Part shown: positions 23,331-62,142 of the stretch, one piece after another
How positions within the stretch are numbered: the stretch's first letter is position 1
Layout of the letters: each line of letters begins with the position of its first letter
Source of the DNA: Candidatus Hydrogenedentota bacterium
GTDB lineage: Bacteria > Hydrogenedentota > Hydrogenedentia > Hydrogenedentales > SLHB01
Direction: 5' to 3'
Assembly: GCA_963668025.2 (NCBI GenBank)
Contig: CAXXTH010000010.1
Location: 1,312,001-1,376,000, forward strand
Length of the DNA stretch: 64,000 nt
Notes under the pieces: generated by a model
What the model saw: only the letters and a program-made list of their open reading frames with translations
Databases searched by the model: none
What the model was told of the DNA's origin: nothing
Position numbers and translations under genes: made by a program

Positions 23331-23362
23331 GTTGGCGGGGAGGTGCGCCCGGACGCAACGAT

Positions 23363-24316: not shown

Positions 24317-24322
24317 TCGTGC

Positions 24323-43627: not shown

Positions 43628-46159
43628 GATTATCGCATCCCTCAGCCAGTGGTTTGAGAAAGGTCTCGGATTCAAAGCGCTGGGCTAGGCGTAGATGCTC
43701 CGGATCGTTCGTCACGGAATATAGGTTCAACAACGTTTCAGAGATGCCCCCGATCTCGGTTCCATCCTTTATCCGAGTCCACTCGGCTTCCTCCAGTTTA
43801 TCTATTCGGCGCTCGAAATACCCCGCCATATTTTTCAGTATGTCTAAAGCCTGTGTGTTGCCACAAAAGGCATACTGGTCGTACAGCCCGGCCATGATTT
43901 TGTGAATGACATAAATAGGCGCCCAGACATGTTCATGGCGTTCCAGGCGCTCCAAATGAGATTCGGGAAAGGCGGAGAGATATCCGTTTCCCAATGATGC
44001 CTGGCATTTAGCCAATTCGGCTACGACATAAGCTGAGCGCTGGCGTAGCGTATCATCGCCTATCGCGGCCATCATGGCGCATGCCGAGAGATAATGCCCC
44101 ATGGAATGCCCGCGTATCTCGCATGTAGGCGCTTCACAGCCCCCGTATGGGCGCGCATCGCTCGGAAGCCCTGCATTCAGACGGAAGGTATGGAGCAGGC
44201 GGCCAGGCTCAAGCGACAATAGCCAGCGCCGATTTGCTTCTTGCGCTTCGGACCAAGGGCTATCCAGTAGACGGATGTCTTTGAGAGCGAAAGCTTCCAG
44301 GGCGGGAGTAGCCTTTGACGAATCAGCAGCCTCCGAAGCATAGGCTGGCTCTATTCCAAGCACCCACCCAATGGCCAGTATGCTGAAAATCCCCAATGAA
44401 ATAACCGTCGAATACATACTGAGCTGGTCATATGAGATGAAAACCGAACCAAGGCAATGCGGTAGTACGCATAAAGAAGCGGTCCGTTGGCGTACGACTT
44501 TTTTCATCGCGGGCTCCCTTCCGTTGTGTTATGTGTTTCGGCTGTATAGTTACAAAAAAATAGATGTGTAGAAAAATACGTCGCGAACGATATTGGACGG
44601 TATCGAAATTGAAGAAATAAAGCGAAGCAATATAGATAACGTTTACTGCGCGCGTTCGGCTTTATGCCATCTTTTATTGCATTTAAACTATTACAAGATG
44701 ATAGCACTAGACACAGAAAACGTTTTCTATTCTCAGTATAATCAGTTTCTTGTATTTTGTCAAGGGCAAGCCATCAAGAGGCATTTGCGAAATAAAGAAA
44801 ATCCGTATTGACAAGGGTTTACAAAGCGGCGGAATTGGCGCCTACCCCGGAGAATGCGGGGAAAGGGGCTTGGCGGGGGCATGAATAAGGATTTTTTGTG
44901 AAAAATCACCCCAAATGCCCTCGGCGAGCGGGAAAAGGCGTAACGTCTCCCGTGTGTGATTGTAGTATAGTTGACCACATAACCACGCACACACCAAGGA
45001 GACGTTTGCGATGGCCATTATACACCAAATGGGGTTGTTCTCGTGGAACCAGGTCGACGCGGCGTCGGATCTGGATCGGCTGAACCTGTTGCTGGCGGCG
45101 CTGCCGGATGAAGATTTGATGCGGGCGATGGAAGCCGAACGCAAGGGGCGGCGCGACGATTATCCTATCCGCGCGATGTGGAACAGCATACTGGCGGGGA
45201 TCGTCTTCCAGCACGACGGCGTCGAAAGCCTGCGCCGCGAACTAGCCCGAAACGGGCAATTGCGCCAGTTGTGCGGATTCGACGTGTTGCGGGGCGCCAA
45301 GGCGGTCCCGCCCGAATGGGTGTACACGCGGTTCTTCGCCAGATTACTGCGCCACTGGAAAGAAGTGGACCGGATGTTCGACGCGCTCATCGTCCGGCTG
45401 ATGGAACGCTTGCCGGATCTCGGGGTGCGTCTGGCCGTAGACTCGAAAGCCATCCAAACCCACGCCAAGCCTCCGCGCAAAGACGCGGTCCTGGAAAACG
45501 AAGAGCCGGACGGGCGGCGCGACCGCGACGCAGACTGGGGCACGAAAACCTACAAGGGCGTTCACAAGGACGGCACGCCCTGGGAGAAGGTCAAACGGTG
45601 GTTCGGCTACAAGCTGCACCTCATCGTGGACACGAAATATGAATTGCCGCTGGGCTACGCGGTCACGAAAGCCAGCGCCAACGACTCGCCCTTTCTGCTG
45701 CCCCTCGTGGCGGCTCTCGACGCGCGCCACCCCGAACTCGTCCAACGCGCCGAGTACCTCAGCGCCGACAAGGGCTATGATTCCGAAGCCAACAACAAGG
45801 GCCTCTTCGAGGAACATGAAATCCGGCCCATCGTGGACATCCGGGCGACCTGGAAAGAAGAACCGGAACGGCCCCGCCCTTTATATCCCGAACGGGTAGA
45901 CACGATCTTCCATACCGAACGAGGTGAAGTCCTCTGCCGGTGTCGTAACGGCGCCCCAAACGAACGCGACAACTATGATTCCATGGCCTACCAAGGATTC
46001 GAGCAAGATCGGGGAACCTTGAAATACCGTTGCCCAGCCAAGGCACGCGGGAGCGCCTGTACCCAGCAAGACCTCTGCAACCAAGGATGCCAGCCCGAAC
46101 ACGGACGGATTGTCCGCGTGCCCATCGCTATCGACCGGCGCATCTTTACCCCCCTGCCC

Positions 46160-47505
46160 CATAAGCGCTAACCTTATTTGATGTCTCCTGACGAATCTTC
46201 TATACTGGGTGCATGGAAGCAGCGTGGAATGAGAATTGGCAGTGTTTACAGCGTTTTCTCCCTGCTGGATGGGAGGACAAGGCTCGTGAATTGGGCGCGT
46301 GGCACCGCAAGCCTCGTTCTATATCGTCGACGGAATCGCTCCTGCGCTTGCTGTTGATCCATTTGGCGGATGGGTGTTCTCTGCGTGAGGCTGTCGTTCG
46401 TGCTCGAGAAGGGAATGTGGCGTCCGTGTCGGATGTGGCACTTCTTAAGCGGTTGCGTGCTTCGGGGGAATGGCTGCGGTGGATGGCCGTAGAGATACTT
46501 CAACGTCGCGCGGGACCGTGCGTTCGGCCTGCATGGCTGGAGTATTACCGTGTTCGCGTCGTGGATGCGAGCGTTGTCTGCGAACCGGGAAGCACGGGAA
46601 CGGACTGGCGCGTTCACTACAGCCTATGTTTATACGGTCTTCAATGCGATGAGTTTCATATTACCGGCCCGAAGGTTGGAGAGAGTTTCGCGCGATTCCG
46701 AGTCTCGCCTGGCGACCTATTGCTCGGAGATCGTGCTTATGGGCATCTCAAAGGTTTTCGTTATGTGCTCGGCCATAACGGGAACTTTCTGACGCGTCTT
46801 AAGAATAAAGCCTTCAGTCTTCGGAATGGCGCAGGGAACACCTGTCCACTGGCTGGATTGGTGGCGTCTCTAGAGGTAGGGGAAGTGGGTGATTGGGCCC
46901 TGATTGGCCAGGCAAAGGGGCAGGAGGAGCTGGCGCTACGGATCTGTGCGCTGCGTTTGAGCGAGGAAGCCGCCGCGCAAAGCATCCGCCGGGCGAAGAA
47001 AGAGCTAAGCAAGAAGCAACGGAGTCTGGATCCCGAAACGCTTGTGCTGCATCGCTACGTCATACTGGCCACATCCTTGCCGGATTCAATATCGCCGCAC
47101 CAGGTTATCGAGTTGTACCGGGCGCGCTGGCAGGTGGAGTTGGCCTTCAAACGGATGAAGTCGATTATGGGATTGGGACACTTGCCAAAGGAAGACGAGG
47201 AGTCGGCCAAGGCTTGGCTCCACGGCAAAATGCTTGTCTCCTGCCTTGCCCAGGCCATTGTTGATGAGGGGCGCTTTTTTTCCCCCTGGGGATATCCACT
47301 GTGACGATATCTACCGCGAGGCCTCCTTGTGGCGCGAACTCTCTTTCGCCTTGCACCTCCTTCGCCAAGCGGTCAATCCGACGCTTGGATTATCCGAATG
47401 CATCAGCCAGTGGCGGGAAATCGCGAGAGATCTGGCAGAGCCCCCAAGGAAGCGAATGCAACAGTTGCGTGGTTTGATGGAGGCAATATAAGGTTAGCGC
47501 TTATG
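46160..47505 (+). mobile_element. IS4-family element
   Basis: 18-bp perfect TIR CATAAGCGCTAACCTTAT; 11-bp duplication CCCCCCTGCCC (46149-46159 / 47506-47516). Confidence 0.92.
46213..47304 (+). CDS. IS4-family transposase (possible +1-frame extension to 47491)
   Basis: VDAS, GDRAY and YRARWQVELAFKRMKS (YREK) motifs. Confidence 0.92.
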   Translation: MEAAWNENWQCLQRFLPAGWEDKARELGAWHRKPRSISSTESLLRLLLIHLADGCSLREAVVRAREGNVASVSDVALLKRLRASGEWLRWMAVEILQRRAGPCVRPAWLEYYRVRVVDASVVCEPGSTGTDWRVHYSLCLYGLQCDEFHITGPKVGESFARFRVSPGDLLLGDRAYGHLKGFRYVLGHNGNFLTRLKNKAFSLRNGAGNTCPLAGLVASLEVGEVGDWALIGQAKGQEELALRICALRLSEEAAAQSIRRAKKELSKKQRSLDPETLVLHRYVILATSLPDSISPHQVIELYRARWQVELAFKRMKSIMGLGHLPKEDEESAKAWLHGKMLVSCLAQAIVDEGRFFSPWGYPL

Positions 47506-48258: not shown

Positions 48259-48387
48259 TTATTCAAGCGTTTCAGGATGCACGCAATTCGGCGGAGTCCC
48301 GCCATTGACACAGGCGATGATGTTTTGGACGTCCATTTTCGCCATGCGGTTGCGGATGGCGTGGGTGGCGCTGCCGAGGTGGGGAAT
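48259..48387 (-). pseudogene. Diverged duplicate of the 3' end of the 2-hydroxyacid dehydrogenase at 50467-51450
   Basis: 129 bp colinear with 50467-50595; encodes IPHLGSATHAIRNRMAKMDVQNIIACVNGGTPPNCVHPETLE*. Confidence 0.9.
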
Positions 48388-50466: not shown

Positions 50467-51450
50467 TTATTCCAGCGCTTCCGGGTTCACGCAATTCGGC
50501 GGCGTATCGCCGTTGAAACGGGCGATGATGTTTTGGGCGGCCATTTCGGCCATGCGGTTGCGGGTGTCGTGGGTGGCGCTGCCGAGGTGGGGGATGAGGA
50601 CGGCGTTTGGACACCCAAGCAGGCGTTCATGCACTTCCGGCTCTCGCTCGAAGACATCCAAGCCCGCTGCGAATATCTCGCCCGCATCGAGGGCCTTCGC
50701 GAGCGCTTCCTCATCCACCACGGGCCCGCGCGCCGTGTTCACGAGGCAGGCAGTGCGTTTCATGGCGCGGAATTCCGCCGCGCCGAAGGCGTGGGTGGTT
50801 TCGGGGGTGAGGGGGCAATGGATGGAGATGAAATCGGATTCCGCTAGGAGCGTGGTTTTATCGGCGAACGCCGCGCCTAAGTCTTGCTCTGTCTCCGGCG
50901 TGAGCCGGTTGCGGCTTGTGTAGAGGACGCGCATGTTGAAGCCTTTAGCGCGGCGCGCCACCGCCTGCCCGATGCGGCCCATGCCGAATATGCCTAGTGT
51001 TTTACCGTGGATATCCACGCCTAGAAAGAGTTGCGGGCCCCAGCCGCTCCATTGGCTTGCGCGCAGGAAGCGTTCCGATTCGCCCAAGCGCCGTGCGGCG
51101 GCCATCAGGAGCGCCCAGGCCAGATCAGCCGTCGATTCCGTCAGGACTCCTGGGGTGTTGCTCACGGCGATCCTCCGCGCCGATGCCTCGGCGATGTCGA
51201 TGTTATTATACCCCACCGCGTAATTGGCGATGATCTTGAGCGGCCTGCCCGCCGCATCCATGACGGCGGCGTCGATGCGGTCGGTCAGCAACGGAAGCAA
51301 CGCGGCCGCGTCTTGGACGAATTCCAGCAACTCATCTGGTTCGATAGGCCTGTCATGGGGGAAGACGTGGACGTTCTCCACGCCGAATGCGGCGCGTAGC
51401 AATTGGAGTCCTATTTCCGGGATAGCGCGTGTCACGACGATCTTAGGCAT
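50467..51450 (-). CDS. D-glycerate dehydrogenase / glyoxylate reductase
   Basis: AVGYNNID, NTPGVLT, GMGRIG, NTARG, LDVFE.EP and PHLGSAT motifs. Confidence 0.92.
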   Translation of the reverse strand: MPKIVVTRAIPEIGLQLLRAAFGVENVHVFPHDRPIEPDELLEFVQDAAALLPLLTDRIDAAVMDAAGRPLKIIANYAVGYNNIDIAEASARRIAVSNTPGVLTESTADLAWALLMAAARRLGESERFLRASQWSGWGPQLFLGVDIHGKTLGIFGMGRIGQAVARRAKGFNMRVLYTSRNRLTPETEQDLGAAFADKTTLLAESDFISIHCPLTPETTHAFGAAEFRAMKRTACLVNTARGPVVDEEALAKALDAGEIFAAGLDVFEREPEVHERLLGCPNAVLIPHLGSATHDTRNRMAEMAAQNIIARFNGDTPPNCVNPEALE

Positions 51451-51498
51451 GCTATTCCACCCGCGCGAAGCGCGACTCGAAAGTTTCTAGGAAGGGGC

Positions 51499-51534
51499 CA
51501 GGGGAAACCCTCTTTCCAAAGAAGGCCTCCCCTG
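51499..51534. repeat. Imperfect intergenic hairpin
   Basis: CAGGGGAAACCCTCTTT-CC-AAAGAAGGCCTCCCCTG between gnd and the dehydrogenase. Confidence 0.45.
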
Positions 51535-51544
51535 AATCATAATA

Positions 51545-52996
51545 TCACACTACGTAGGTCGAGGCCGAGGTCATGCCGCCGCGTCCGGTCCAATTGGTAT
51601 GGAAGAACTCGCCGCGCGGCTTATCGACGCGCTCATAGGTGTGCGCGCCGAAGTAGTCGCGCTGGGCCTGGAGCAGGTTGGCGGGCAAGCGCTCCGCGCG
51701 ATACCCATCGAAATAGGCCAGCGCGGTGCTAAGGGCCGGGGCCGGGATGCCCAGCTTCACCGCCGTGGTGATGACGCGCCGCCAGGCGGATTGGGCCTTC
51801 TCGATGGCGTCCTTGAAGAACGGATCGAGCAGCAGATTCACGAGGCCGGGATCTTTGTCGAAGGCCTCCTTGATTTTACCCAGGAAGGCCGACCGGATAA
51901 TGCAGCCGCCGCGCCACATGAGGGCGATGCCGCCGTAGTTCAGGTTCCAGCCGTATTCCGCCGCCGCCGAGCGCATGAGCTGGTAGCCTTGGGCATAGGA
52001 CACGATCTTCGAGGCGTAAAGCGCCTGGCGCAGATCGTTGACGAAGGCCTTCTTGTCGCCATCGAACGCACAGGTTTGGCCTTTAATGAGTTTCGATGCG
52101 GCCACGCGCTCGTCCTTGATGGCCGATAGGCAGCGTGCGAATACGGCTTCGCCGATAAGGGTCAACGGCTGGCCTTGGTCGAGGGCGGCGATGGCGGTCC
52201 ACTTGCCCGTGCCCTTCTGGCCGGCCGTGTCGAGGATAAGGTCCACGACCTCGTTGCCCTCTTCGTCTTTATATCCCAAGATGTCGCGGGTGATCTCGAT
52301 GAGGTACGAGTCGAGTTCGCCCTTGTTCCATTCCGCGAATACTTCATGCATTTCAGCGTTCGACATGCCGAGTCCTTGGCTCATGAGATGGTAGGTCTCA
52401 CAGATCATCTGCATGTCGCCGTACTCGATGCCATTATGCACCATCTTGACGAAGTGGCCCGCGCCGCCCTCGCCGACCCAGTCGCAACAGGGGGCGCCGT
52501 CGGCGGTCTTGGACGCGATGGCTTGGAAGATGGGCTTCACATGCTCCCATGCGGCAGGCGAACCGCCGGGCATGATGGACGGCCCGAGCAGCGCGCCTTC
52601 CTCGCCGCCCGACACGCCAGTGCCGATGTACAGGAAGCCCTTGCTCTCGACATATTGCGCACGGCGGATGGTGTCCGGGAAATGCGAATTGCCGCCGTCA
52701 ATGATGATGTCGCCTGGTTCGAGGTGGGGGAGAAGCAGTTCGATGAAGTCGTCCACCGCCTTACCCGCCTTCACCAGCATCATGACCTTGCGCGGCGTCT
52801 TCAAGTTGGCGCACAGCTCTTCGATGCTGTGGCAGCCCAGGATGTTTTTGCCTTTGCCCCGGCCATTCACGAAATCATCCACTTTCGATACGGTGCGGTT
52901 AAAGACCGCCACGGAAAAGCCTTTGCTTTCCGCATTGAGCACTAGATTTTCGCCCATGACCGCCAAGCCGATGAGCCCCATGTCCATTTTCGCCAT
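51545..52996 (-). CDS. gnd: NADP-dependent 6-phosphogluconate dehydrogenase
   Basis: [28 protein letters not shown] and [12 protein letters not shown] motifs. Confidence 0.97.
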
Positions 52997-53026
52997 TGGT
53001 TAGCTTCTCCTTCTATGTTGATTGTG

Positions 53027-53347
53027 TTATGAATGATTAAGTGTCATATTCGCTTCTTGCAGCACTTCATAGTACTTTTCAATAATCGCCTGGAATTCCT
53101 TTGCCAGCTTGTCCCAGTCCAGCACGTCCACCATGAACGGCAGATTGGACTCCGCAAACGCGTCCTTCAGTTCCTCTATGCGCCGCCAATCCACCGGCTC
53201 CGGCGTGACGAGCGCCAGATCCAAGTCGCTGTAAGGCCGCGCATTGCCCCGTACCCGCGAACCGAAGGCCCTCACCTCCGCTTCGGGGATGTGCGACGCG
53301 AGGAGCCGCTTCACTTCCGCTAGTTCTTCACTAGATAAGTCAATCAT
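53027..53347 (-). CDS. Minimal nucleotidyltransferase (MNT antitoxin-like)
   Basis: FGSRVRG..SDLDL and LPFMVDV motifs; overlaps the HEPN stop. Confidence 0.9.
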   Translation of the reverse strand: MIDLSSEELAEVKRLLASHIPEAEVRAFGSRVRGNARPYSDLDLALVTPEPVDWRRIEELKDAFAESNLPFMVDVLDWDKLAKEFQAIIEKYYEVLQEANMTLNHS

Positions 53348-53759
53348 TCCGTTTTTCAAGTTCCGCTAGAAGCGCTTGTGCATGAGGCAAAAACTGCTTT
53401 GCGTGCTCTAGCGCCACTTCCGCTTGCGCTTCGTCATATGTGTGGGACGTTAAGCTTCGTGCGTCGCCAAAAGCAAACCATGGCTCGGGATTGGCGATAA
53501 GGCCTTGCCTGGCCGACATACGGAACAACTCCTTGCGCGTCCGGGGAAACTCGGCTTCCGCCAGCGAACCATTCTCGCGCAGCCACCGCTGCATGAACTT
53601 CCAGCACTGCTCGTACGCGATCTCGAAGTGCTGGATGATGCCTGCTCGAATCGCTTCCCGCGCGTCAGCCTCATAGGAGTCACCACGCGTATCCAGTACG
53701 TGCAATGAACGATCCAGCGCTTCGATGGTTTTCCGCAAGCTTGTCAGTTCCAGCCGCAT
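53340..53759 (-). CDS. HEPN protein (HI0074 family)
   Basis: IIQHFEIAYEQCWK; RSLTSHTY (RX4H) motif. Confidence 0.9.
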   Translation of the reverse strand: MRLELTSLRKTIEALDRSLHVLDTRGDSYEADAREAIRAGIIQHFEIAYEQCWKFMQRWLRENGSLAEAEFPRTRKELFRMSARQGLIANPEPWFAFGDARSLTSHTYDEAQAEVALEHAKQFLPHAQALLAELEKRND

Positions 53760-53784
53760 GGTTCACCTCAGTTCATGTCTCACT

Positions 53785-55071
53785 CTATTTCCGCAATGCC
53801 TGCAACGTGTACGCCGGGAGTTTTTTATCCGCGAAGATCGGTTTGAACCGCGTGAAGCGGTGGCGGCCGGCATTGATCGGCGCGCTGATCCAGTCTTCGC
53901 CGATGAGCGGTTTTGCATAGCGCACGAAATCATCCGTCACATCGATCTTGCTTGGCGCAATCCACGACTTCGGGAAAGAACGTTCCGAATTGGCGACTTG
54001 TTCGAGAGGCACTTTGTCATACCGCACATTATAAATCACGCCCGGCTCGCGCAAGATGGTGGACATCCAGCCATTCTCGCCGGATTGGGCGATCAAGGCG
54101 GCCTTCTGGCCTACTTTATATGCTTCATCCAGGTCCACGATGGATGTATACAGCGCCATGGCGCGTTGATCCGTACCCGAGACTTGTCCGCGCGCCGCAC
54201 CAGGCACCGGCAGTTTCTTTTCATTCAACAAGTTGACGATTTTCTGCGCGGCGGTCAGTTTCGTGGCTCCGAAATGGGTGTGGCCGAAGCTATCCTTGAT
54301 ATCGCCTAATTCGCCTATGTCGAAGCCCTCGCTTACGACGAGCATGCACCGGCCATCGCGCTTGAGCTGGTCGCTCACGTTGTCGCATAACTCTTCCGCT
54401 GTCACGCCCGATTCGGCCATATAGATCTGAAGCGGCATCTCCCGTTTCGGGTCCGCCAGACGCGCCGCCGCAGGAATGAAGCCGATTTTGCGGCCCATGG
54501 CCTGCATGACCAGAACGGGATCGTTGGGGCAAGAACCTGCATTTTCTTCGTTGGCGGCCTGGACCACGCCCATCCAATACCGCGCCACGCTGCCGTAGCC
54601 CGGCGTATGGTCGATGAGCTTGAATTCCGAGTCGCCCACGTCGTTGTCGATGGTCTTCGGAACGCCGACGCCGATGAGGTCGAGGCCTTGTTCGTGGGCG
54701 AGGTTGGCGATTTTATGGGCGGTGTCCATCGAGTCATTGCCGCCGTTATAGAAGAAATACCCGATGTTATGGGCCTTGAACACCTCGATGACCCGCTGGA
54801 AGTCCTCTTGCTGGTCTTTTTTCAACTTGTACCGGCAAGTGCCGATAGAGCCTGCGGCGGGGGTGTAACGCAGCAGGGCGACTTCTTCTTCATCTTGAGC
54901 AGACAGGTCGAGTAATTCTTCCTTCAAGACGCCCTCAATGCCGTGCCATCCCGCGTAGAGGGTTCCAAAGGTCTCAGGGAACATCTTGCACGCGTCGATG
55001 ACGCCGCGAAGCGAGCTGTTGATGACGGGGCTAGGCCCGCCAGACTGTGCGACAATGACATTCTTTGGCAT
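53785..55071 (-). CDS. PfkA-family kinase, predicted PPi-dependent
   Basis: QSGGPSPVIN, GGNDS (Asp typical of PPi use), PKTIDND, MGR and SEG motifs. Confidence 0.85.
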   Translation of the reverse strand: MPKNVIVAQSGGPSPVINSSLRGVIDACKMFPETFGTLYAGWHGIEGVLKEELLDLSAQDEEEVALLRYTPAAGSIGTCRYKLKKDQQEDFQRVIEVFKAHNIGYFFYNGGNDSMDTAHKIANLAHEQGLDLIGVGVPKTIDNDVGDSEFKLIDHTPGYGSVARYWMGVVQAANEENAGSCPNDPVLVMQAMGRKIGFIPAAARLADPKREMPLQIYMAESGVTAEELCDNVSDQLKRDGRCMLVVSEGFDIGELGDIKDSFGHTHFGATKLTAAQKIVNLLNEKKLPVPGAARGQVSGTDQRAMALYTSIVDLDEAYKVGQKAALIAQSGENGWMSTILREPGVIYNVRYDKVPLEQVANSERSFPKSWIAPSKIDVTDDFVRYAKPLIGEDWISAPINAGRHRFTRFKPIFADKKLPAYTLQALRK

Positions 55072-55540
55072 GATGCAATTGTTCCTCCTGTATAGTGCCA
55101 TTATATCCAAATAGAATGAACCTAAATAATCGGCTTACGCCGATTCAATATGAATTCCATAGAGTAGCATAGCCGCAACTAAAGGCCCGGATTGTAGGCC
55201 ACGAAATACCCTAAATACACGAAAACATTCAATGGAATACTTTGTGACTCTGGCCACGCCGTTGTTAATTGCTCATCAGTGTAATCGGTGTCATCAGTGG
55301 ATCAAAATGTCTTCAAATGCTTGCACAGGAAATCTTTGCAAGAAAAGGTTTTTTGTAGATAGCAGCCCAACACTGGCGGCGCATGGCGGCATTGAAATAC
55401 GTGTAGCATGCGCTTTTCTTGTTTAACCAGCTTCTATTAGTTAATAATTTCATAAAAATCGATTAAATAACAATCATAAATTAACTTATTATACAGCTAG
55501 AGTCAACGCTCTAACATTATCTAGGGCCTATTATAAGACA

Positions 55541-56869
55541 TTATGACATACGATTTCTATAAAAAGGCTTCGGTGCGGGATTGCCTTCTTTTAACCGATA
55601 GAGCACTTCTCCCGCGTGTGGCACGAGGAGAAGCCCTTCCTCTTCCTTGTCTTTCCAGTCATCGGGATGGATGGATGCCGGAGCACGATACCCCAGGTTA
55701 ATGGCGCGGCATTCCTCTTCGGGTATTCCCGTGGCCAGCGTGACCTGAATCCGGCATTTTTCCACGCCGTTTTCCATAGTCCCGATGCCGCGCACGTGGG
55801 TCGAATGGGCCAGGATGCCGCCGGGTATGTCGCGAAATCTATCGAGTTGGGACAAGAAATAGTCGCGGGTATGATAACCGATGCGCTTGATCAGTTTGCC
55901 ATGAGTCACGCTGATTTCACGAATATGCGGCGCACAAATAATCAGTTCGCCGCCATCGGCCACCACGGGCTCGAGCTTGTACATGCATTTGCCCGCCACC
56001 CAGATCTCGTCATACATGGCGGGGGCCATGGCGAGCACGCTGGTGTAGGGGCGGTCTTTGTAGACGACATGCGTCTGTGCCGATAGGTCCGCTGCGGCGT
56101 CCCAGGCGTCTTCCGGCGTGCCGTAAAAAATGCCTTTGCAATCCTTGCCCATCACATTCAGGCAAAAGCAGCGTTTCTCGATGGGAATCATGGAGGCGGC
56201 TAGGTTGATGACTTCCCGCACGGGCGTGTACTTTGTGCCATTGATGACGGGATTCGAGATCAGCGCGCCCAACCAGTGAAATAGGTTCAGTATTTCCTCG
56301 CCCGCGATGCCGGGGAAAAAATACTTGTTGCCGCCGCTGAAGCCTACGACCTCGTGGGGAAACACGGGCCCTACAATGCACAGCAAATCGTAATCAAAGA
56401 TCCGCTTGTTGATCAGCACATCGGCGCGCTGCCGCAGCAATCCGCCGCTGATGTGTTCGATCTCTTCCTCAGTGACCGTTCCGATATGCCGCAGCATATC
56501 CGCATTCTGCCAATCATGATTAAAAATGCCGACATCCGCGTATTTGGTTGCGCGCTCTTCGGACGATATGCCCACGAGGTGGTTGATGGCCTCATCCGTC
56601 ATGGGCGGATGTGTGCCCAAGGCCACGAGGCAATCCATTTTCGCCACGCGCCCATGGACCGCATCAAACAGCGCTCGAAACATAGCCGCCATGGGCATGC
56701 TGCGCGTGCTGTCGGGAATGATGAAGAGGACGCGCTTGCCATTGATGGATTCGTTTCCCAGCGTTTCTTGCACGAAAGCATGCAAGCCGGACTCTGATAG
56801 GAAGCCTTGCGATGCGATCAGTTGCTTAGTTGAGGATGTGGTTTGCATCAACTCGGGTATCTCCTCCAT
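55541..56869 (-). CDS. LarA-family (nickel-pincer) 2-hydroxyacid racemase/epimerase
   Basis: IPDSTR, ALGTHPPM, NHDW and PHEVVGFSGGNK motifs. Confidence 0.88.
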   Translation of the reverse strand: MEEIPELMQTTSSTKQLIASQGFLSESGLHAFVQETLGNESINGKRVLFIIPDSTRSMPMAAMFRALFDAVHGRVAKMDCLVALGTHPPMTDEAINHLVGISSEERATKYADVGIFNHDWQNADMLRHIGTVTEEEIEHISGGLLRQRADVLINKRIFDYDLLCIVGPVFPHEVVGFSGGNKYFFPGIAGEEILNLFHWLGALISNPVINGTKYTPVREVINLAASMIPIEKRCFCLNVMGKDCKGIFYGTPEDAWDAAADLSAQTHVVYKDRPYTSVLAMAPAMYDEIWVAGKCMYKLEPVVADGGELIICAPHIREISVTHGKLIKRIGYHTRDYFLSQLDRFRDIPGGILAHSTHVRGIGTMENGVEKCRIQVTLATGIPEEECRAINLGYRAPASIHPDDWKDKEEEGLLLVPHAGEVLYRLKEGNPAPKPFYRNRMS

Positions 56870-56887
56870 GTGAAAGGCTCGGAATAC

Positions 56888-57033
56888 TCACCACTAAGTC
56901 ACAAAGACACAAGGAGTTGTGAGAGTTCATTCATCTGCCTCACTCTTTATTTGTGCAATAATGGTTAAATATTCATATACATACATGATGAAGTCCTTGA
57001 GAACCTCTTTGTGTCTTCGTGTCTTGGTGGTGA
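56888..57033. repeat. Inverted pair of 8-nt-periodic CACNAAGN arms (same family as 34801/35181)
   Basis: TCACCACTAAGTCACAAAGACACAAGGAG ... CTCTTTGTGTCTTCGTGTCTTGGTGGTGA (25 of 29 match). Confidence 0.85.
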
Positions 57034-57034
57034 A

Positions 57035-58201
57035 TTATCCGGATACTTCCGCAGATCTATCGGCAATGCTATATCCCAATCCCGCCAGCGCCCTCTCGAT
57101 CTCGCTATTCGCAGGCTCCACGAGCGCGCGCGTATTAAAAAACTCGCAGCGCTGGGGATATTCTTTCCGCAAGCGATCAAAGTATGCGCCGCGCTGTTCC
57201 TCGGGCTGCCCAATAATGCCGCGCATGGCCGCATCGTCTTCCACTATATCATAAACCGGTTTTACTGCTTGCCGCAGGGCGTCCATAAAGGGAAGTGAAC
57301 CATCCACGCGCACTTCGGGGCACGCTGGCGCGGGGAGCAAAGGCGCGGGATTCCAAGTGGGGGGGAGGCCCAGGAATTGGCAGGCGGCCTCGTAAATCTG
57401 CCGCGTGCCGTTCACCTTGCCATCGAAGGAGTAGCCCGCGATGTGGGGCGTGCCGATGAACACGCGCTTGAGCAGAGCGGCGTTTATACTCGGTTCGCCT
57501 TCCCATACATCGAGCACGCAGGCCCGCAAGTGGCCATCATCCAGGGCGTGTATAATCGCTTTGCCGTCCGCCACGGGGCCGCGTGAACTGTTCATGAGAA
57601 TCGCGCCTGGCTTCATTGCTTGAATAAACGATTCGTCCGCCAAATGATAGGTCGCGTCCGGCCCTTCTTTCTGAATAGGCACATGGAGCGTGACGATATC
57701 GCATCCCAGGATCTCTTCAATAGGCCGGTATTTGGTATTGCCAGTCTGGCGCTCGAGCGGCGGATCGTTGAGGACGCACTTCATGCCTAGCGCAGTGGCC
57801 ATGGCCAGCACCCGTTTTCCCACATTGCCCACGCCTACGATGCCCAGCGTCATGCCGTGCAAATCGAATCCGAATCGTTCGCTCAGCGCCAGCAAGGCGC
57901 ACGCGATATATTGGCCTACGCTGTTCGCGTTGCAGCCCGGCGCGCTCGAGAAAGCGATGCCGTGTTGTGCGAGATACGCCTTGTCGATGTGGTCTTCTCC
58001 AATGGTGGCCGTGGCCACGAAACGGACCTTGGAGCCATCCAAGAGCGCCGCGTTCACCTTGGTGATCGAGCGGACCAGCAGTAGTTCCGCGTCGTGGACG
58101 GTCTCTGCGGCCATCTTGCGGCCGTGCGCCGTACACACTTCGCCCAGTGGCGCAAACGCCTCCCGGACATAGGGGATGTTTTCATCGGCGATAATCAGCA
58201 T
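57035..58201 (-). CDS. pdxB: 4-phosphoerythronate dehydrogenase
   Basis: IADENIP, LLVRSIT, TATIGEDHID, APGCNA, LDVWEGEP, TPHIAGYS and FDRLRKEYP motifs. Confidence 0.9.
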   Translation of the reverse strand: MLIIADENIPYVREAFAPLGEVCTAHGRKMAAETVHDAELLLVRSITKVNAALLDGSKVRFVATATIGEDHIDKAYLAQHGIAFSSAPGCNANSVGQYIACALLALSERFGFDLHGMTLGIVGVGNVGKRVLAMATALGMKCVLNDPPLERQTGNTKYRPIEEILGCDIVTLHVPIQKEGPDATYHLADESFIQAMKPGAILMNSSRGPVADGKAIIHALDDGHLRACVLDVWEGEPSINAALLKRVFIGTPHIAGYSFDGKVNGTRQIYEAACQFLGLPPTWNPAPLLPAPACPEVRVDGSLPFMDALRQAVKPVYDIVEDDAAMRGIIGQPEEQRGAYFDRLRKEYPQRCEFFNTRALVEPANSEIERALAGLGYSIADRSAEVSG

Positions 58202-58218
58202 GGTAGCTCCTTTTTTGG

Positions 58219-58247
58219 ACCACGAATGGACACGAATTTGCACGAAT
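58219..58247. repeat. Single periodic arm (CACGAAT x3, 10-nt period)
   Basis: ACCACGAATGGACACGAATTTGCACGAAT just upstream of the pdxB RBS. Confidence 0.7.
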
Positions 58248-58381
58248 AAAGAAGTGCATTTCTGGTGCATTAATCAAACTTACAGACAAAATGCTTATGT
58301 GTATATAATTATATTTATAGTACATTATTAAATTATTTACTGATGTATTTTCATTGATTCATATATGTAAAATAATCGTGA

Positions 58382-59440
58382 TCATTGGTGTTTATTCCTG
58401 GTTCCTCTCGTTTCTTCATCAATGATTGCTTTCGTGAGCGAGATAGCGTCCAGCGCATATGGGCTGTCGCTGGTCTCCTGGCACAAGATGATTTCATCAA
58501 CGCCTTGCCGCACGGCAAGGGCGACATCATTGAGTTCAGCCCGGTTGGGCGTTCCGGTGGACGCATAGTGTTCGAGGAATTGCGTGGCCACGGCCACGGG
58601 CTTGCCTGCTAATTGGGCAAGTTTTACGATCTCCTCCTGAATGCGCGGCAGCCGGTGGGGCGGCACGAATATGCCCAAGTCGCCGCGCCCCAGCAGAACG
58701 CCATCCGCTTCGGCGATGATGGCGCGCGCGTTTTCCACGGCGTAAGCGGTTTCGATTTTAGCGATGATGCGCGGTGTCTCCTCCGGCCATATAGCGGTGA
58801 TGTCGCGGCGCGCTTCGGCTATCTGCGCGGCGGATACGGCCAGAGATAGCAGGATGCCGCTGGGTTTTATGCGTGCGGCGGCGAAACAGGCGAGGAGCTT
58901 TTGGTCGTCCTTGCGAAGCAATTCAAAATGGACGCCGCTATCGGGGAAGCTGCACCCGTTGTTTTCTTGAAGCGCTGAAGAGGCGGTATGGCATCTTGCC
59001 GATATCGTATTCGCCGTGTGGGAAATCACACTGAAGATATTACGCCCATCACGGAACATCAGCCGATGTCCGGGCTCGAGCATGGAAGCCCATTGCGGCA
59101 AGCCAGGCAGTGGAATTTCACCCTCTATTTGGGTGGTTTCCGCATCCACAAGCTGGACGATTTCGCCAGGATGGAACCGGCGGGCAAGCATGCGGCCAAT
59201 GCGCGGGCGCGTGGCGGGCAGATCAAGATATAGCCCGCATTTGGTTTCAAGCCCAGCAGAGGCTAGTATTTCTTGCTTGGCCAGAATAATATTTCGAGCG
59301 TCCATCAGATGATCGCGGCCGGACAGCCCTAAGGCCATGCGGAATCCGTTTGCACCGCACGCCATGGCTTCCCTGAGTTTTTGTAAGGAATCCATGGTTC
59401 GTCCGGCGCTGGCGATGATCCGGGGGCGCTGTTGTATCAA
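58382..59440 (-). CDS. Divergent pyruvate-kinase-like protein lacking the C-terminal regulatory domain
   Basis: IAKIET, GRGDLG, VATQ and PNRAELNDV retained; RLNFSHG and DTKGP motifs replaced; protein ends right after the barrel. Confidence 0.8.
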   Translation of the reverse strand: MIQQRPRIIASAGRTMDSLQKLREAMACGANGFRMALGLSGRDHLMDARNIILAKQEILASAGLETKCGLYLDLPATRPRIGRMLARRFHPGEIVQLVDAETTQIEGEIPLPGLPQWASMLEPGHRLMFRDGRNIFSVISHTANTISARCHTASSALQENNGCSFPDSGVHFELLRKDDQKLLACFAAARIKPSGILLSLAVSAAQIAEARRDITAIWPEETPRIIAKIETAYAVENARAIIAEADGVLLGRGDLGIFVPPHRLPRIQEEIVKLAQLAGKPVAVATQFLEHYASTGTPNRAELNDVALAVRQGVDEIILCQETSDSPYALDAISLTKAIIDEETRGTRNKHQ

Positions 59441-59445
59441 GGTTT

Positions 59446-59586
59446 TTACGACTCCTTCGCCAACTGCGGGAAGAGCGTCACCACAAAATCATATACCGGT
59501 TCTTCGAAGGTTTCGCACCACCAGGTGGGCGCGCAGCCGCATGGCATGGGGCATAACTGGCTGGTGGCGGCTTTTATGTGCTTCAT
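59446..59586 (-). CDS. 46-aa Cys/Trp-rich peptide (absent from the ORF track)
   Basis: GAGGAG RBS, ATG 59586 to TAA 59446: MKHIKAATSQLCPMPCGCAPTWWCETFEEPVYDFVVTLFPQLAKES; ends 5 nt before the PK-like start. Confidence 0.65.
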   Translation of the reverse strand: MKHIKAATSQLCPMPCGCAPTWWCETFEEPVYDFVVTLFPQLAKES

Positions 59587-59605
59587 GGCCTGTCTCCTCA
59601 GTTGT

Positions 59606-59648
59606 AATAGGGGAGAAGCCATCCCACATCGAGTGTTTCTCCCCTATT
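59606..59648. other. 12-bp perfect stem at the upstream edge of the peptide/PK-like cassette
   Basis: AATAGGGGAGAA ... TTCTCCCCTATT. Confidence 0.6.
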
Positions 59649-59668
59649 TGTTCCACCAATAGGAATGG

Positions 59669-60568
59669 TTAATGGCCGTTCTTTTTCCACGGCGGCAGCT
59701 CGGGCAGATACGTGTCGAATTCGCGGATCAATTCCGCTTCATATTCGCCCGCGAATGTGCCCGCGAAGAACCGGTCGAGGCCTTCTTCATACAGACGTTT
59801 CCACGACTTGTCTTCATCGCCCGGAAGGATGGGGAAGAAGAGTGCGCCATTGCCCCGCGCTGCTTTCATATCGCCCGGCGCGTCGCCAATCATGAGCATG
59901 TTCATTTTTTCGTAGCGCCCTTCCGAGGCGTAGCCGATATGCTGCGTCTTTGTGCCCATTTCCTGCCCCGCGATGGCGAAGACATACTCGGCGAGGCCTT
60001 GCTCTTCCCATTCGCGCACGAGGGCCTCCGTGGGCGTCTGTGAACAAACCAGCATGTCCGCCTTATCTTGAGCTTTTTGCAGGCATTCACGCACATAAGG
60101 GAACGGCGGAAGGCCTTTGTCCACGATATCCGCCACCGATACATTCACGGCTTTGCTCCAGCGCAAGGTTTGGTGCATGACCGGATCATCGTGTTCTTTG
60201 CAATATGCCTCGAGGGCGGGATTGCCCAGTTTGGATTCCTTTTCGACCCATGCCCGCAGCGAGGGCACATCAGGGGCCTTAATGCCGCGCTCTTGCACTT
60301 TGTCCCAATCGTTCAGCAGGTCGAAGGTCATCAGGATCGCTGGAAAGCGGTTGCAGCCGCGCCATTTCGAGTAGAGGTTCACGAACTCCGCCGCCGCGCG
60401 CGCATATTTCGACACGGTTTGGAGCTCCCAATGCTTGATGATGTTCGGGATGAAACATTCCTTGTGCTTGATCTCCATCGTATCGAAGGCGCAGCCGTCC
60501 GAATCAATGGCGATTAAGAATTGGTGTTTGGGCTGGTGGTTCTTCAGAACTGCTACGGGGTCGCTCAT
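59669..60568 (-). CDS. HAD-family hydrolase
   Basis: IDSDGCAFDT motif I; GQEMGTK; MIGDAPGD motif IV. Confidence 0.88.
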   Translation of the reverse strand: MSDPVAVLKNHQPKHQFLIAIDSDGCAFDTMEIKHKECFIPNIIKHWELQTVSKYARAAAEFVNLYSKWRGCNRFPAILMTFDLLNDWDKVQERGIKAPDVPSLRAWVEKESKLGNPALEAYCKEHDDPVMHQTLRWSKAVNVSVADIVDKGLPPFPYVRECLQKAQDKADMLVCSQTPTEALVREWEEQGLAEYVFAIAGQEMGTKTQHIGYASEGRYEKMNMLMIGDAPGDMKAARGNGALFFPILPGDEDKSWKRLYEEGLDRFFAGTFAGEYEAELIREFDTYLPELPPWKKNGH

Positions 60569-60617
60569 GATAGTTTCTTCCCTTTCTTTTTTTGATGAAA
60601 TTAAGAATGCGCTTCTG

Positions 60618-61022
60618 TCATAACTGTTTATACATTTCTAACAGCCAGTCCCTCATGACGGGGGTATAGGATGAAATGCGTTTCGCGAGTTCTTCAGCGA
60701 GCAATTCATTATAAGTATGCACGGCAAGATTCCGATCATCCGCCATCTGCATAGCCAGATCTTGTGAAGAGCGGTTAATAAGGCCATTTTGCAGGCATGC
60801 CCTCACGATTTCTTTGGGAGAGGCGAATGCTTGCCCATACGCTTGGCGCAATACGGTTTGCGCTGCTTTCCAAATTGCTTCGAACGTAAAGATAAACCGA
60901 AGAATGGCGGCATCCCGGGAACGATTATCGTCATCGTTGGGGATAGGCTCAAGAGGCAGAGCCCTTTCGAGCGCCTCTAAAGCTGTTTTTGCGGTATCTA
61001 GCCGCTTCACCATTATTTCCAT
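60618..61022 (-). CDS. HEPN protein (HI0074 family)
   Basis: RDAAILRFIFTFEAIWK, SPK and RNLAVHTY motifs. Confidence 0.9.
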   Translation of the reverse strand: MEIMVKRLDTAKTALEALERALPLEPIPNDDDNRSRDAAILRFIFTFEAIWKAAQTVLRQAYGQAFASPKEIVRACLQNGLINRSSQDLAMQMADDRNLAVHTYNELLAEELAKRISSYTPVMRDWLLEMYKQL

Positions 61023-61303
61023 CGAATGCCTTCCTTGATGACGGCGTCGCGAAAATCCGCACTCGTGCTCGAAAGGTCTATCACATCCGCGAAATACGGG
61101 ATGTCGCTTTCTTCTAATGCGGAGCGGATGGCTGGCATCACGCTCATAGGCATAGGGCCCTTCGGCAGCACCGCGATATCAATATCGCTTGCGCGATCAT
61201 CTTCTCCCCGGGCCGACGAGCCGAACAGATACGCCTCGGCGTCATGGCCTTCCAGCGCCGATAGCACCAGGGCCTTGGCCTTTTCGATATACTTGGAATC
61301 CAT
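61013..61303 (-). CDS. Minimal nucleotidyltransferase (MNT antitoxin-like)
   Basis: LFGSSARG..SDIDIAV, IPYFADVIDL and EGIRW motifs. Confidence 0.9.
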   Translation of the reverse strand: MDSKYIEKAKALVLSALEGHDAEAYLFGSSARGEDDRASDIDIAVLPKGPMPMSVMPAIRSALEESDIPYFADVIDLSSTSADFRDAVIKEGIRWK

Positions 61304-61311
61304 GGCGCGAA

Positions 61312-62142
61312 TTATACGCCCGAAAACGCGCTGAATCCGCCGTCGATGGGCACCACGATGCCCGTGACGAATCGCGAGGCGTCTGACGCCAGCCAAATGG
61401 CTACGCCGATCAAGTCTTCCGGTTTCCCGAATTCAGCCATGGGCGTATGGGCGATGATGGTTTTTCCTCGCGGCGTCAGCTCTCCGGTCTTCTCATCGGT
61501 CAGCAAGAACCGGTTTTGATCCGTCAGGAAGAACCCCGGCGCGATGGCGTTCACCCGCAGCTTGGTGCTGTATTCCTGCGCCAAGTGTACGGCGAGCCAT
61601 TGAGTGAAGTTGCTGACGGCTGCTTTCGCCGCACTGTACCCCGGTATGCGTGTCAGCGGGCGCAGGGCGTTCATGGATGATATATTAATGATGCTCCCGC
61701 CTTCGGCCTGGTTTTTCATGCGGCGGCCAAAAACTTGGGAAGGCACGATAACGCCTCCGGTCAAGTTGAGATCGATGACTTTCTGAATCGCTTCGGCGGG
61801 GAGATCAAAGAAAGACTGCTCCGGAGAGGTCGTCACGCCCTTCATGTTGCCGCCCACGCAATTGAACAGGCTGTCTACTTTGCCGAAATCGTGGTAAATG
61901 GACTCGCAGCAAGCTTCAATGGACGTTTTTTCAAAGACATTCATCCCATAGGCGGCGGCTTTGCCCCCATCCGCCGTAATGGCGGCAGCCTTCGCCTTGG
62001 CGTTGTCAAGGGCTACATCAGCGATAGCCACGCTTGCGCCTGCGTGTGCAAGGCCGCGAGCGATGGCGCCGCCGAGTACGCCGCCGCCGCCAGTGACGAC
62101 GACTACCTTGCCAGTTAGATCAAAACATGAAGTATTTGCCAT
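61312..62142 (-). CDS. uxuB: SDR, D-mannonate oxidoreductase type
   Basis: TGGGGVLG, RPLTRIPGYSAAKAAVSNFTQWLAVH, APGFFLTDQNR and DGGFSAFSGV, characteristic of the SDR-type mannonate oxidoreductase group. Confidence 0.8.
   Translation of the reverse strand: MANTSCFDLTGKVVVVTGGGGVLGGAIARGLAHAGASVAIADVALDNAKAKAAAITADGGKAAAYGMNVFEKTSIEACCESIYHDFGKVDSLFNCVGGNMKGVTTSPEQSFFDLPAEAIQKVIDLNLTGGVIVPSQVFGRRMKNQAEGGSIINISSMNALRPLTRIPGYSAAKAAVSNFTQWLAVHLAQEYSTKLRVNAIAPGFFLTDQNRFLLTDEKTGELTPRGKTIIAHTPMAEFGKPEDLIGVAIWLASDASRFVTGIVVPIDGGFSAFSGV

Follow-up and report, generated by a model that had tools for sequence, protein, structure and literature searches.

The DNA analysed here, referred to as the window, is a stretch of 64,000 nucleotides from a Candidatus Hydrogenedentota bacterium (assembly GCA_963668025.2, contig CAXXTH010000010.1, forward-strand positions 1,312,001 to 1,376,000), and the system in question is a gene cluster at 50467-62142 (Table 1). 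It brings together a homologue of the lactate racemase LarA (LarAH), a member of the phosphofructokinase (PFK) family PfkA, a HAD-superfamily protein, a short-chain dehydrogenase/reductase (SDR) and the 6-phosphogluconate dehydrogenase Gnd. All long open reading frames (ORFs) of the interval that match a family lie on the minus strand, and the interval ends coincide with ORF ends. An original prediction, made from the letters of the window, listed seven co-oriented genes (SDR, HAD, pdxB, LarA, PfkA, gnd, and a 2-hydroxyacid dehydrogenase). All seven are present on the minus strand, but the list omits five genes, namely two HepT/MntA-type pairs and one gene for a pyruvate-kinase barrel. The prediction also stated that uxuA, kdgK, eda, and gntK are missing from the window, and no UxuA, PfkB-family kinase, 2-keto-3-deoxy-6-phosphogluconate (KDPG) aldolase, or gluconokinase was indeed found among the 15 + 35 window ORFs scanned. 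The PfkA-family ORF extends from a TTG at 53785-55110, and the public database form of 428 residues corresponds to the shorter span in Table 1. Counts from a promoter and terminator scan of the cluster were the same as those from shuffled sequences.

Table 1. Genes of the cluster, in the direction of reading, followed by other features of the window
Feature	Position	Strand	Evidence
SDR, D-mannonate oxidoreductase (UxuB/UxaD-type) subfamily	61312-62142	-	NF006132, 351.9 bits (cut-off 281)
MntA-like nucleotidyltransferase, toxin-antitoxin pair 1	61013-61396	-	Pfam Polbeta and NTP_transf_2; NF047752, 48 bits (under cut-off)
HepT-like / HI0074-family protein, toxin-antitoxin pair 1	60618-61022	-	PF08780, 78.7 bits; TIGR01987, 56.4 (cut-off 55.8)
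HAD-superfamily protein with large helical cap	59669-60568	-	HAD_2, 21 bits (under 23.8)
Pyruvate-kinase barrel-only protein, 352 aa, accessory	58382-59440	-	PF00224, 118.8 bits; all NCBIfam pyruvate kinase models under cut-off
PdxB (4-phosphoerythronate dehydrogenase)	57035-58270	-	NF001309, 450.4 (cut-off 434); DUF3410 (PF11890, 48.5 bits)
LarAH, GntE-like nickel-pincer 2-hydroxyacid (hexonate) epimerase (putative)	55541-56869	-	Lar_N PF09861, 83.5 bits
PfkA-family protein, distinct clade (PRK14072 type, PPi-type motifs)	53785-55071	-	NF010675, 366.1 bits (cut-off 273); PF00365, 118.9 (cut-off 30.9)
HI0074/HepT-like protein, toxin-antitoxin pair 2, between PFK and Gnd	53340-53759	-	PF08780, 106 bits; TIGR01987, 62.7 (cut-off 55.8)
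MntA-like nucleotidyltransferase, toxin-antitoxin pair 2	53027-53359	-	PF01909, 41.9 bits; NF047752, 40.2 bits (under cut-off)
Gnd, decarboxylating 6-phosphogluconate dehydrogenase	51545-52996	-	TIGR00873, 765.6 bits (cut-off 426.7)
D-2-hydroxyacid dehydrogenase, GhrB / glyoxylate reductase-like	50467-51450	-	NF009714, 384.2 bits (under 455)
Stretch resembling GhrB-like C-terminus	48262-48387	-	42 residues, 76% identical
DDE transposase	46213-47304
DDE transposase	45011-46171
SIR2_2-domain protein, 575 aa	37517-39244
DDE transposase, 517 aa	26184-27737
Exopolysaccharide / PEP-CTERM-type locus	8422-25855

The arrangement is conserved in the order to which the genome belongs. Among 40 relatives, orthologues of the cluster PFK (74-84% identity) occur in 37, and orthologues of LarAH in the same 37. 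Of the 20 loci fetched from these genomes, 15 have LarAH directly upstream of the PFK orthologue, 12 keep the full SDR-HAD-PdxB-LarAH-PFK array, and 13 have Gnd (71-87% identity across the order) within approximately 3 kb after PFK; the five loci without an adjacent LarAH come from genomes that carry it elsewhere. SDR orthologues (59-81% identity) head the cluster in the relatives, and a GhrB-like dehydrogenase (55-68% identity) follows Gnd in 9 of the 20 loci.

To look beyond the order, we ran a LarAH pattern scan that returned more than 590 places; the best 80 loci, 53-73% identical and from many phyla, were analysed, and the subfamily is large and well conserved. The PFK clade of the window is present in 14 of these 80 loci, 5 of which lie outside Hydrogenedentota-like genomes (64-74% identity, same operon): a Calditrichaceae metagenome-assembled genome (MAG), a Cytophagia-labelled MAG, a KSB1 genome, an Elusimicrobia MAG, and one further bacterium. 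The Calditrichaceae operon reads SSF transporter-SDR-transketolase-Gnd-LarAH-PFK-HAD, followed by a GHMP kinase, a nucleotidyltransferase, and UxaC, and the Elusimicrobia operon reads SDR-PFK-HAD-PdxB-LarAH-Gnd; PdxB belongs to the cluster only in Hydrogenedentota-like loci and in one Elusimicrobia locus. SDR orthologues in other phyla adjoin LarAH, UxaC, or UxaE. In other phyla the clusters frequently include UxaC, UxaE, and TRAP or SSF transporters and are therefore sugar-acid utilisation loci. The original prediction made conservation of the linkage a check on its proposal, and SDR, LarAH, PFK, and Gnd are kept together both within the order and across phyla, far beyond chance. What is new is a distinct clade of the PfkA family that adjoins LarAH and/or Gnd in Hydrogenedentota, Calditrichota, KSB1, Elusimicrobia, and Planctomycetota. 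A limited literature search turned up no published account of this clade in a sugar-acid role, which does not imply that none is in print.

The position that the PFK clade takes in these loci is held elsewhere by other kinases. A PfkB-family kinase (orthologues 65-80% identical to one another) is encoded immediately after LarAH in 9 of the 80 loci, as in the order transketolase-SDR-LarAH-PfkB-Gnd of Myxococcota-labelled MAGs and UxaC-...-Gnd-LarAH-PfkB-HAD of a Fidelibacterota genome. Among families, this kinase best matches the kinase part of a KDPG-aldolase/kinase fusion, KDG/KDGal kinases, and IolC, in each case under the cut-off. UxuA was found in none of 5 genomes with a PfkB-type cluster, so that the kinase does not simply serve a UxuA branch. 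One Clostridia-labelled locus has an FGGY enzyme before Gnd, with gluconokinase as best match (386.8 bits, under the cut-off of 648.55). No locus of the 80 contains both the PFK clade and the PfkB kinase. The PFK clade therefore sits in an operon slot held elsewhere by a KdgK/IolC-like PfkB kinase or an FGGY gluconokinase-like enzyme.

We next turned to planctomycetes, in which the genes are often dispersed, and sampled 61 genomes of at least 85% completeness from the order around one genome with the PFK clade (MAG completeness 85-100%; kin are not independent). The PFK clade (61-70% identity) is present in 45 genomes and an orthologue of the PfkB kinase (67-78% identity) in 15, all of them among the 16 without the PFK clade. 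None of the 45 PFK-clade genomes has the PfkB orthologue, and they hold only paralogues of 32-37% identity; exactly one kinase type is thus present in 60 of the 61 genomes, with zero overlap. The HAD orthologue follows the same division. It is found in 46 genomes, namely all 45 with the PFK clade plus one (G093) with neither kinase, and in none of the 15 PfkB genomes. Read from coordinates, the distance between PFK and HAD is at most approximately 2 kb in 27 of these 45 genomes; in the other 18 they are on different contigs or far apart. HAD, to which the original prediction gave no role, is a constant partner of the PFK clade. LarAH is present in 57 of the 61 genomes, UxaC in none. In the maximum-likelihood tree of the 57 LarAH sequences, kinase type changes five times (5-6 in the 5-95% range of bootstrap trees), and 0 of 200 bootstrap trees needs only a single change. 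Of the seven PFK-clade loci fetched from planctomycetes, five have the order PFK-HAD-Gnd, with a gene for a metallo-beta-lactamase (MBL)-fold protein following or neighbouring.

An SDR homologue (45-52% identity, orthology uncertain) occurs in 14 of the 61 genomes, all among the 15 with PfkB, and is beside the kinase in 8 or 9. We considered whether SDR plus PfkB could be the chemical equivalent of PFK plus HAD, and rejected this: we found no chemistry that would be consistent, and SDR coexists with PFK and HAD in Hydrogenedentota and Calditrichaceae. Because of this coexistence, the absence of SDR from the planctomycete PFK-clade genomes is read as a difference in feed.

The distribution bears on one alternative, which is that housekeeping pdxB, pfp, and gnd have come to lie beside an unrelated small hexonate module by chance or for regulatory reasons, with no shared pathway. 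PdxB, Gnd, and the PFK clade are highly conserved (PFK and Gnd at the identities given above for the order) and plausibly housekeeping; moreover, with a 0.4 kb gap between LarAH and PFK and with toxin-antitoxin insertions, the array need not be one transcript. However, the same neighbours recur in different orders in at least five other phylum-level lineages, and PFK and HAD co-occur even in the 18 planctomycete genomes in which they are unlinked, so that we regard mere juxtaposition as very improbable.

LarAH of the cluster resembles epimerases of hexonates. Residues H87, H172, K182, and H198 are invariant in 14 orthologues and align to the lactate racemase apoprotein 2YJG; we take them to be two catalytic histidines, the lysine that binds the cofactor, a nickel-pincer nucleotide (NPN), and a nickel-binding histidine. 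Against PDB sequences, the match to Thermotoga maritima 4NAR scores 222.6 bits and those to lactate racemases are weak (approximately 32 bits). The nearest proven enzyme is thus of the gluconate/mannonate 2-epimerase kind, as the original prediction had it, 4NAR being described as such in the passages of PMC7583248 on this protein. These passages define LarAH groups 18-20 by E-V/S in a loop and Trp in helix 11, plus A/V in helix 14. Our check covered the loop and helix 11, and both elements, the E-V loop (PHEVVGFSGG) and the Trp (IWVAGK), are present and invariant in 14 orthologues. The best NCBIfam model is NF052594 (group 18, putative hexonate epimerase), but the score of 181.8 bits is far under the cut-off of 500, and by the NCBI rule the protein is therefore not filed in group 18. 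The genes for the cofactor, larBCE, which it had been proposed to seek elsewhere, are all in the genome: LarC is found twice, each time with an adjoining AIRC-type LarB, and LarE scores 287.8 bits (cut-off 150), so that the NPN pathway is complete.

A second LarA homologue (44% identity) lies on contig C18 in a sugar-acid cluster of its own (locus L127, 10204-19960), with an SMP-30 gluconolactonase, an E1/transketolase-like protein, an aldehyde dehydrogenase, a RhaT-like transporter, an SDR, and a Zn-dependent (glucose-dehydrogenase-like) enzyme.

With regard to kinases that could act on gluconate, no SKI-type gluconokinase was found in the genome (best TIGR01313 score 22.7 bits, cut-off 113.75). 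There are five FGGY kinases, one of which is XylB, and the other four score best on the XylB model, under its cut-off and every other. These were considered as hidden gluconokinases and set aside, as none of the five reaches the gntK_FGGY cut-off, although some may have an uncharacterised specificity. UxuA was likewise not found in this genome. KDPG aldolase is encoded on contig C9 beside a KdgK-like kinase and an enolase-superfamily dehydratase.

We propose that the cluster is an entry for sugar acids into the pentose phosphate pathway, built on the GntE-like epimerase and Gnd. The SDR would reduce a 5-keto-hexonate, e.g., fructuronate to D-mannonate, after which LarAH would invert C2 to give D-gluconate. 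The PFK clade, together with HAD, would then phosphorylate gluconate to 6-phosphogluconate, with pyrophosphate (PPi) as the donor judging from its motifs, and Gnd would convert this to ribulose 5-phosphate. The PFK and HAD pair would thus take the place of the KdgK/IolC-like PfkB kinase or the FGGY gluconokinase-like enzyme of other genomes. What we infer here from genes and motifs are all catalytic activities, the donor of the phosphoryl group, whether epimerisation comes before phosphorylation, and what HAD does. That the PFK supplies the missing step was the core of the original prediction; its place in the sugar-acid-kinase slot and the exclusivity with PfkB across the 61 genomes favour this part, while the retention of catalytic and most fructose 6-phosphate (F6P) site residues goes against it. 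Given the shared slot, the zero overlap with PfkB, the presence of additional canonical PFKs (see below), and the lack of a recognised gluconokinase, we give an even chance to the PFK clade and HAD providing the phosphorylation step that makes 6-phosphogluconate.

The PFK itself scores approximately 247 bits against both 3K2Q and 3HNO in the PDB. Two database searches each gave at least approximately 8000 scored relatives, and those of the PFK are named phosphofructokinase. Two further PfkA-family genes are present in the genome: a PRK14072 paralogue on another contig and an ATP-type enzyme of approximately 330 residues. The PRK14072 paralogue (approximately 35% identity to the cluster PFK) is the more canonical, scoring 486.9 bits to PRK14072 versus 366.1 for the cluster protein, and in 4 of 5 other-phylum genomes with the cluster there are further PFKs with much higher Pfam scores. 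The clade is therefore an extra paralogue.

We aligned 16 members of the clade with 7 paralogues and E. coli PfkA. The motifs GGNDS, PKTIDND, MGR, and SEG are common to the clade and the canonical paralogues; PKTIDND, AMGRK, and VSEG are invariant in 10 clade members, and in three members from other phyla A or S precedes the lysine (A/S-KTIDND). GGNDS and PKTIDND fit what we take to be the rule for PPi-type donors, i.e., Asp at E. coli position 104 and Lys at 124. The motifs QAMGRKIGFI, GTDQR, and GGND picked out by the original prediction are all in the protein, and K after MGR and T-D before QR are specific for the clade; GGND, however, also occurs in the canonical paralogues and so marks the subfamily, not the clade. 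The changes specific to the clade, next to the sugar-distal site, are Y/H to T and L/I to D before QR (R-G-Q-V-x-G-T-D-Q-R, compared to R-A-D-T-L-G-Y-L-Q-R in the paralogue), MGRK for MGRH, and a five-residue insert, GDSEF, after TIDNDV. This stretch was matched by eye to E. coli R243...H249-I-Q-R252, where MAFFT misaligned the E. coli sequence. Both arginines of R-x8-R are kept, with Thr at the H/Y position and Asp next to it. R243, H249, and R252 are presumably the ligands of the 6-phosphate of F6P, and the clade thus appears to have kept its catalytic core and, of the three ligands of the distal anion, two. Such a site would suit an open-chain aldonate no better than a furanose ketose with a distal anion, such as F6P, sedoheptulose 7-phosphate (S7P), or fructuronate.

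One variant of the route starts from a substrate of this kind. The PFK clade could phosphorylate the keto-acid first, giving D-fructuronate 1-phosphate, which SDR would reduce to 6-phosphomannonate, with LarAH acting as a 6-phosphomannonate 2-epimerase as in Lactobacillus suebicus extracts. D-fructuronate (5-dehydro-D-mannonate) mimics F6P, with a carboxylate in place of the 6-phosphate, and the clade keeps an F6P-like site while the residues facing the distal anion are changed. IolC, which by family names is related to the alternative PfkB kinase, adds its phosphate to a 5-keto-hexonate beside the keto group. In addition, the Michaelis constants of the tested GntE enzymes for free mannonate are high (9-120 mM). 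On the other hand, the SDR and LarAH of PfkA, PfkB, and FGGY clusters are equally similar to the window proteins, which argues for one common order of steps, and the gene order SDR-LarAH-kinase-Gnd in several phyla follows that of T. maritima. Given also the 45 PFK-clade planctomycete genomes without an SDR orthologue, and with no fructuronate source seen in the genome of the window, we judge phosphorylation of the keto-acid to be unlikely.

[quoted passage not shown] The protein keeps the catalytic and most F6P-site residues and passes the PRK14072 cut-off, PFK-HAD-Gnd clusters exist in Planctomycetota without LarAH nearby, a transketolase is part of the Calditrichaceae operon, and a transaldolase-family (TAL) gene is missing in 26 of the 40 relatives. 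Planctomycete PPi-PFKs have been read as S7P kinases by homology to the enzyme of Methylococcus capsulatus, which prefers S7P (passages in PMC5673643). Likewise, 4-phosphoerythronate poisons Gnd by inhibition and is removed by HAD-type phosphatases such as Pho13 (PMC6449344), and PdxB, which has this compound as its substrate, is in the same cluster. However, an ordinary PFK leaves unexplained both the shared operon slot and why, in 61 genomes, the clade never overlaps with the KdgK-like kinase; the genome is already provided with an ATP-type PFK and a more canonical PPi-type paralogue; and the LarAH route would be left without a recognised kinase in this genome. Transaldolase complementarity, the idea behind an S7P kinase, was tried as the cause of the clade's distribution and rejected. 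Of the 61 planctomycete genomes, 58 have TAL, and among the 45 with the PFK clade 44 do. The genome of the window has two TAL-family genes; the clade occurs regardless of transaldolase and is no substitute for it. Taken together, we consider an ordinary PPi-PFK or S7P kinase somewhat unlikely.

The HAD protein has all four HAD motifs, DSDGC (DxDG), S176/T178, K207, and GDAPGD (GDxxxD), and all are invariant. A search against PDB sequences gave nothing at E <= 1. The structural model (predicted local distance difference test score, pLDDT, of 93) has a seven-helix cap, and its nearest folds are closed beta-phosphoglucomutase, then phosphoglycolate phosphatases and others, with template modelling (TM) scores of 0.52 on the query and 0.68 on the target at 12-15% identity. 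Two of the beta-phosphoglucomutase entries are, by title, complexes with fructose 1,6-bisphosphate. The HAD protein shares with beta-phosphoglucomutase the C1-capped HAD core with DxDG, Ser/Thr, Lys, and GDxxxD, but its cap is much larger, with seven helices, and the identity is 12-14%; the modelled likeness is best taken as family-level resemblance and gives no functional assignment. A way to combine both proteins would be a PPi relay, in which the PFK clade makes fructose 1,6-bisphosphate (or another 1-phospho-ketose) and the aspartyl-phosphate of HAD passes the phosphate to gluconate or mannonate, giving the 6-phospho acid and regenerating F6P. The two proteins would then stand in for an ATP-dependent sugar-acid kinase. 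A relay would account for the kept F6P site, for HAD as a constant companion of the clade, and for the alternation of two proteins with one PfkB kinase, although we think it decidedly unlikely.

Several observations weigh against a hexonate kinase role for the PFK clade and HAD. The retained TIDND, MGR, and SEG motifs and both R-x8-R arginines fit F6P or S7P, the protein passes the NCBI cut-off for the PPi-PFK subfamily, and all sources name it PFK. To our knowledge, no PfkA-family enzyme phosphorylates anything other than ketose phosphates. A simple kinase step needs no HAD, and the function of the alternating PfkB kinase is itself only inferred. In planctomycetes, no SDR orthologue is found at E <= 1e-50 in the 45 PFK-clade genomes, and 4 of these 45 lack a LarA orthologue at E <= 1e-100, which a gluconate kinase would tolerate but which loosens the coupling. 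The clustering of PFK, HAD, and Gnd without LarAH in this phylum is explained equally well by a pure pentose-phosphate role. As for the LarAH tree, its strongly supported branches force only one kinase switch, and it is a gene tree rather than a species tree. For UxaC, which would supply fructuronate, the search found no gene in this genome and a full-length one in just 7 of the 40 relatives. Finally, the joint absence of PFK and LarAH from three relatives in the order was considered as evidence and dropped as uninformative: in G009 it reflects an assembly break (Gnd and HAD fragments at contig ends), and G026 and G037, from one family, lack Zwf, Gnd, HAD, LarAH, and PFK together.

What feeds the proposed route may differ between lineages. 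The original prediction had hexuronates entering it, but neither UxaC nor UxaE was found in the genome of the window (93.75% complete), and with UxaC as rare in the relatives and absent from the 61 planctomycete genomes as described, a hexuronate feed via UxaC is not supported for Hydrogenedentota and Planctomycetota. The overall pattern is nested and suggestive of a funnel: the closer a step lies to Gnd, the more widely it is kept, with Gnd and the kinase nearly universal, LarAH present in most genomes, SDR in some, and UxaC/UxaE in few. The prediction also noted that Gnd needs 6-phosphogluconate. Gnd is single-copy in the genome (a single tblastn match). Zwf is present, as it is in 34 of 41 genomes overall, so that Gnd does not depend on the route and the idea of Gnd without Zwf was abandoned for this genome. 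Four relatives (G018, G021, G033, and G034; 93-100% complete) keep the cluster and Gnd and have no Zwf match; in these, the supply of 6-phosphogluconate may depend on the route.

PdxJ is encoded in the genome (319.3 bits), with no other close copy of PdxB, and PdxB is therefore probably an ordinary housekeeping enzyme of pyridoxal phosphate synthesis. A 2-ketogluconate (Kgu-like) route via the two 2-hydroxyacid dehydrogenases was considered and set aside, as PdxB and GhrB are confined to Hydrogenedentota-like clusters and one Elusimicrobia cluster. The proposed route gives the GhrB-like enzyme no step. The pyruvate-kinase barrel-only protein has no C-terminal domain and scores 150.3 bits on TIGR01064, under the equivalog cut-off of 306.4; its best PDB match is 7OO1 (115.8 bits). 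KIE, RGDLG, and ATQ-LE-type motifs are kept and the N-terminal R-x-N/GPKIR motifs are absent. Of the 20 loci from relatives, a single one (L026) has the gene, which is therefore a lineage-specific addition. The two HepT/MntA-type pairs (type VII toxin-antitoxin-like) are inserted in the cluster with mutually opposite gene orders, and none was found with the window queries in the 20 syntenic loci of relatives. In planctomycetes, the MBL-fold gene (Lactamase_B_2, approximately 250 residues) follows Gnd in loci L189-L192 and L197, and a homologue lies near SSF transporter-PfkB-SDR genes in one PfkB-type genome; no orthologue was found in the genome of the window.

Elsewhere in the window are an exosortase/exopolysaccharide locus, transposases, a GH127 enzyme, and other genes. 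The stretch resembling the GhrB-like C-terminus lies approximately 2 kb downstream of the GhrB-like gene and near two of the DDE transposase genes, which together suggest a past rearrangement at the end of the cluster. In the PEP-CTERM-type locus, the exosortase EpsH and two giant TPR proteins are encoded together with a polysaccharide export protein, an ABC-2 exporter, a WecG transferase, a GT2 enzyme, a chain-length kinase-like protein, and a sigma-54 activator. A transposase with the same length and domain pattern as the 517-residue DDE transposase is found on contig C19 (locus L128, 9028-10581), 2 kb from LarB-LarC genes, and this is probably an insertion sequence in several copies. The SIR2_2-domain protein, whose domain is frequent in defence systems, is encoded by an isolated gene flanked by those for an adenylosuccinate lyase-like protein and an iron alcohol dehydrogenase.

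If the PFK clade and HAD do make 6-phosphogluconate, the clade would be the first PfkA-family enzyme with a role beyond ketose-phosphate phosphorylation, and a PPi-driven step would be added to sugar-acid catabolism. An annotation correction would then be due, since thousands of genes labelled phosphofructokinase may do a different job, and the metabolism reconstructed for Planctomycetota, Hydrogenedentota, and further phyla that have been little studied would look different; in the passages concerned, published reconstructions count several PPi-PFKs and report no gluconokinase, with Thermogutta terrifontis as an example. Two orphan activities of L. suebicus, the mannonate kinase and the 6-phosphomannonate epimerase, would also obtain candidate genes, and LarAH group 18 would gain a testable function. 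If, instead, the clade is an ordinary PPi-PFK or S7P kinase, the fixed PFK-HAD-Gnd triad would point to an unrecognised layer of proofreading or control on the oxidative pentose phosphate pathway.

The concept of a route from mannonate via gluconate to 6-phosphogluconate without a dehydratase, as set out in the original prediction, is already in print for T. maritima and L. suebicus. For T. maritima, gene context led to the proposal of a gluconate 2-epimerase (Rodionova 2012, as cited in PMC7583248), and according to the sections concerned GntE2/LarAH20 interconverts D-mannonate and D-gluconate (Desguin et al. 2020, PMC7583248) and "probably" admits mannonate to the pentose phosphate pathway; its gene lies between those for fructuronate reductase and gluconate kinase (as stated in a passage of PMC6978723). 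The UxaD-GntE-GntK-Gnd route of T. maritima shares with the present cluster the SDR, a LarA-family C2 epimerase, a kinase gene adjoining the epimerase, Gnd, and the lack of a dehydratase. It differs in having a gluconokinase where the cluster has a PfkA-family protein and HAD; moreover, LarAH here belongs to another subgroup, and UxaC and UxaE were not found. Extracts of L. suebicus phosphorylate mannonate with ATP and epimerise 6-phosphomannonate to 6-phosphogluconate (Valk et al. 2020, in the part of PMC6978723 on these assays). This galacturonate pathway likewise takes mannonate to 6-phosphogluconate with a kinase and a C2 epimerase, followed by Gnd, but the kinase acts first, followed by a 6-phosphomannonate epimerase, and both are orphan activities measured in extracts.

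LarAH group 18 has the same gene context and provides the best NCBIfam match of the cluster protein. In the supplement of PMC7583248, whose context table draws on an older database and includes 354 LarA homologues, the neighbours of its 25 members include SDR (36%), Gnd (32%), a ribokinase-family kinase (16%), and UxaC (12%). The group differs in having no phosphofructokinase in its recorded context, the word having 0 occurrences in a word search of two supplementary files of that paper, and in being a group without a tested activity. The PRK14072-type PPi-PFKs (3K2Q, 3HNO, and the enzyme of M. capsulatus) share with the clade the fold family, GGNDS, PKTIDND, MGR, and SEG, and the length. They have Y-L before QR where the clade has T-D, and it is the clade that has K after MGR, the five-residue insert, a constant HAD partner, and an alternation with a KdgK-like kinase.

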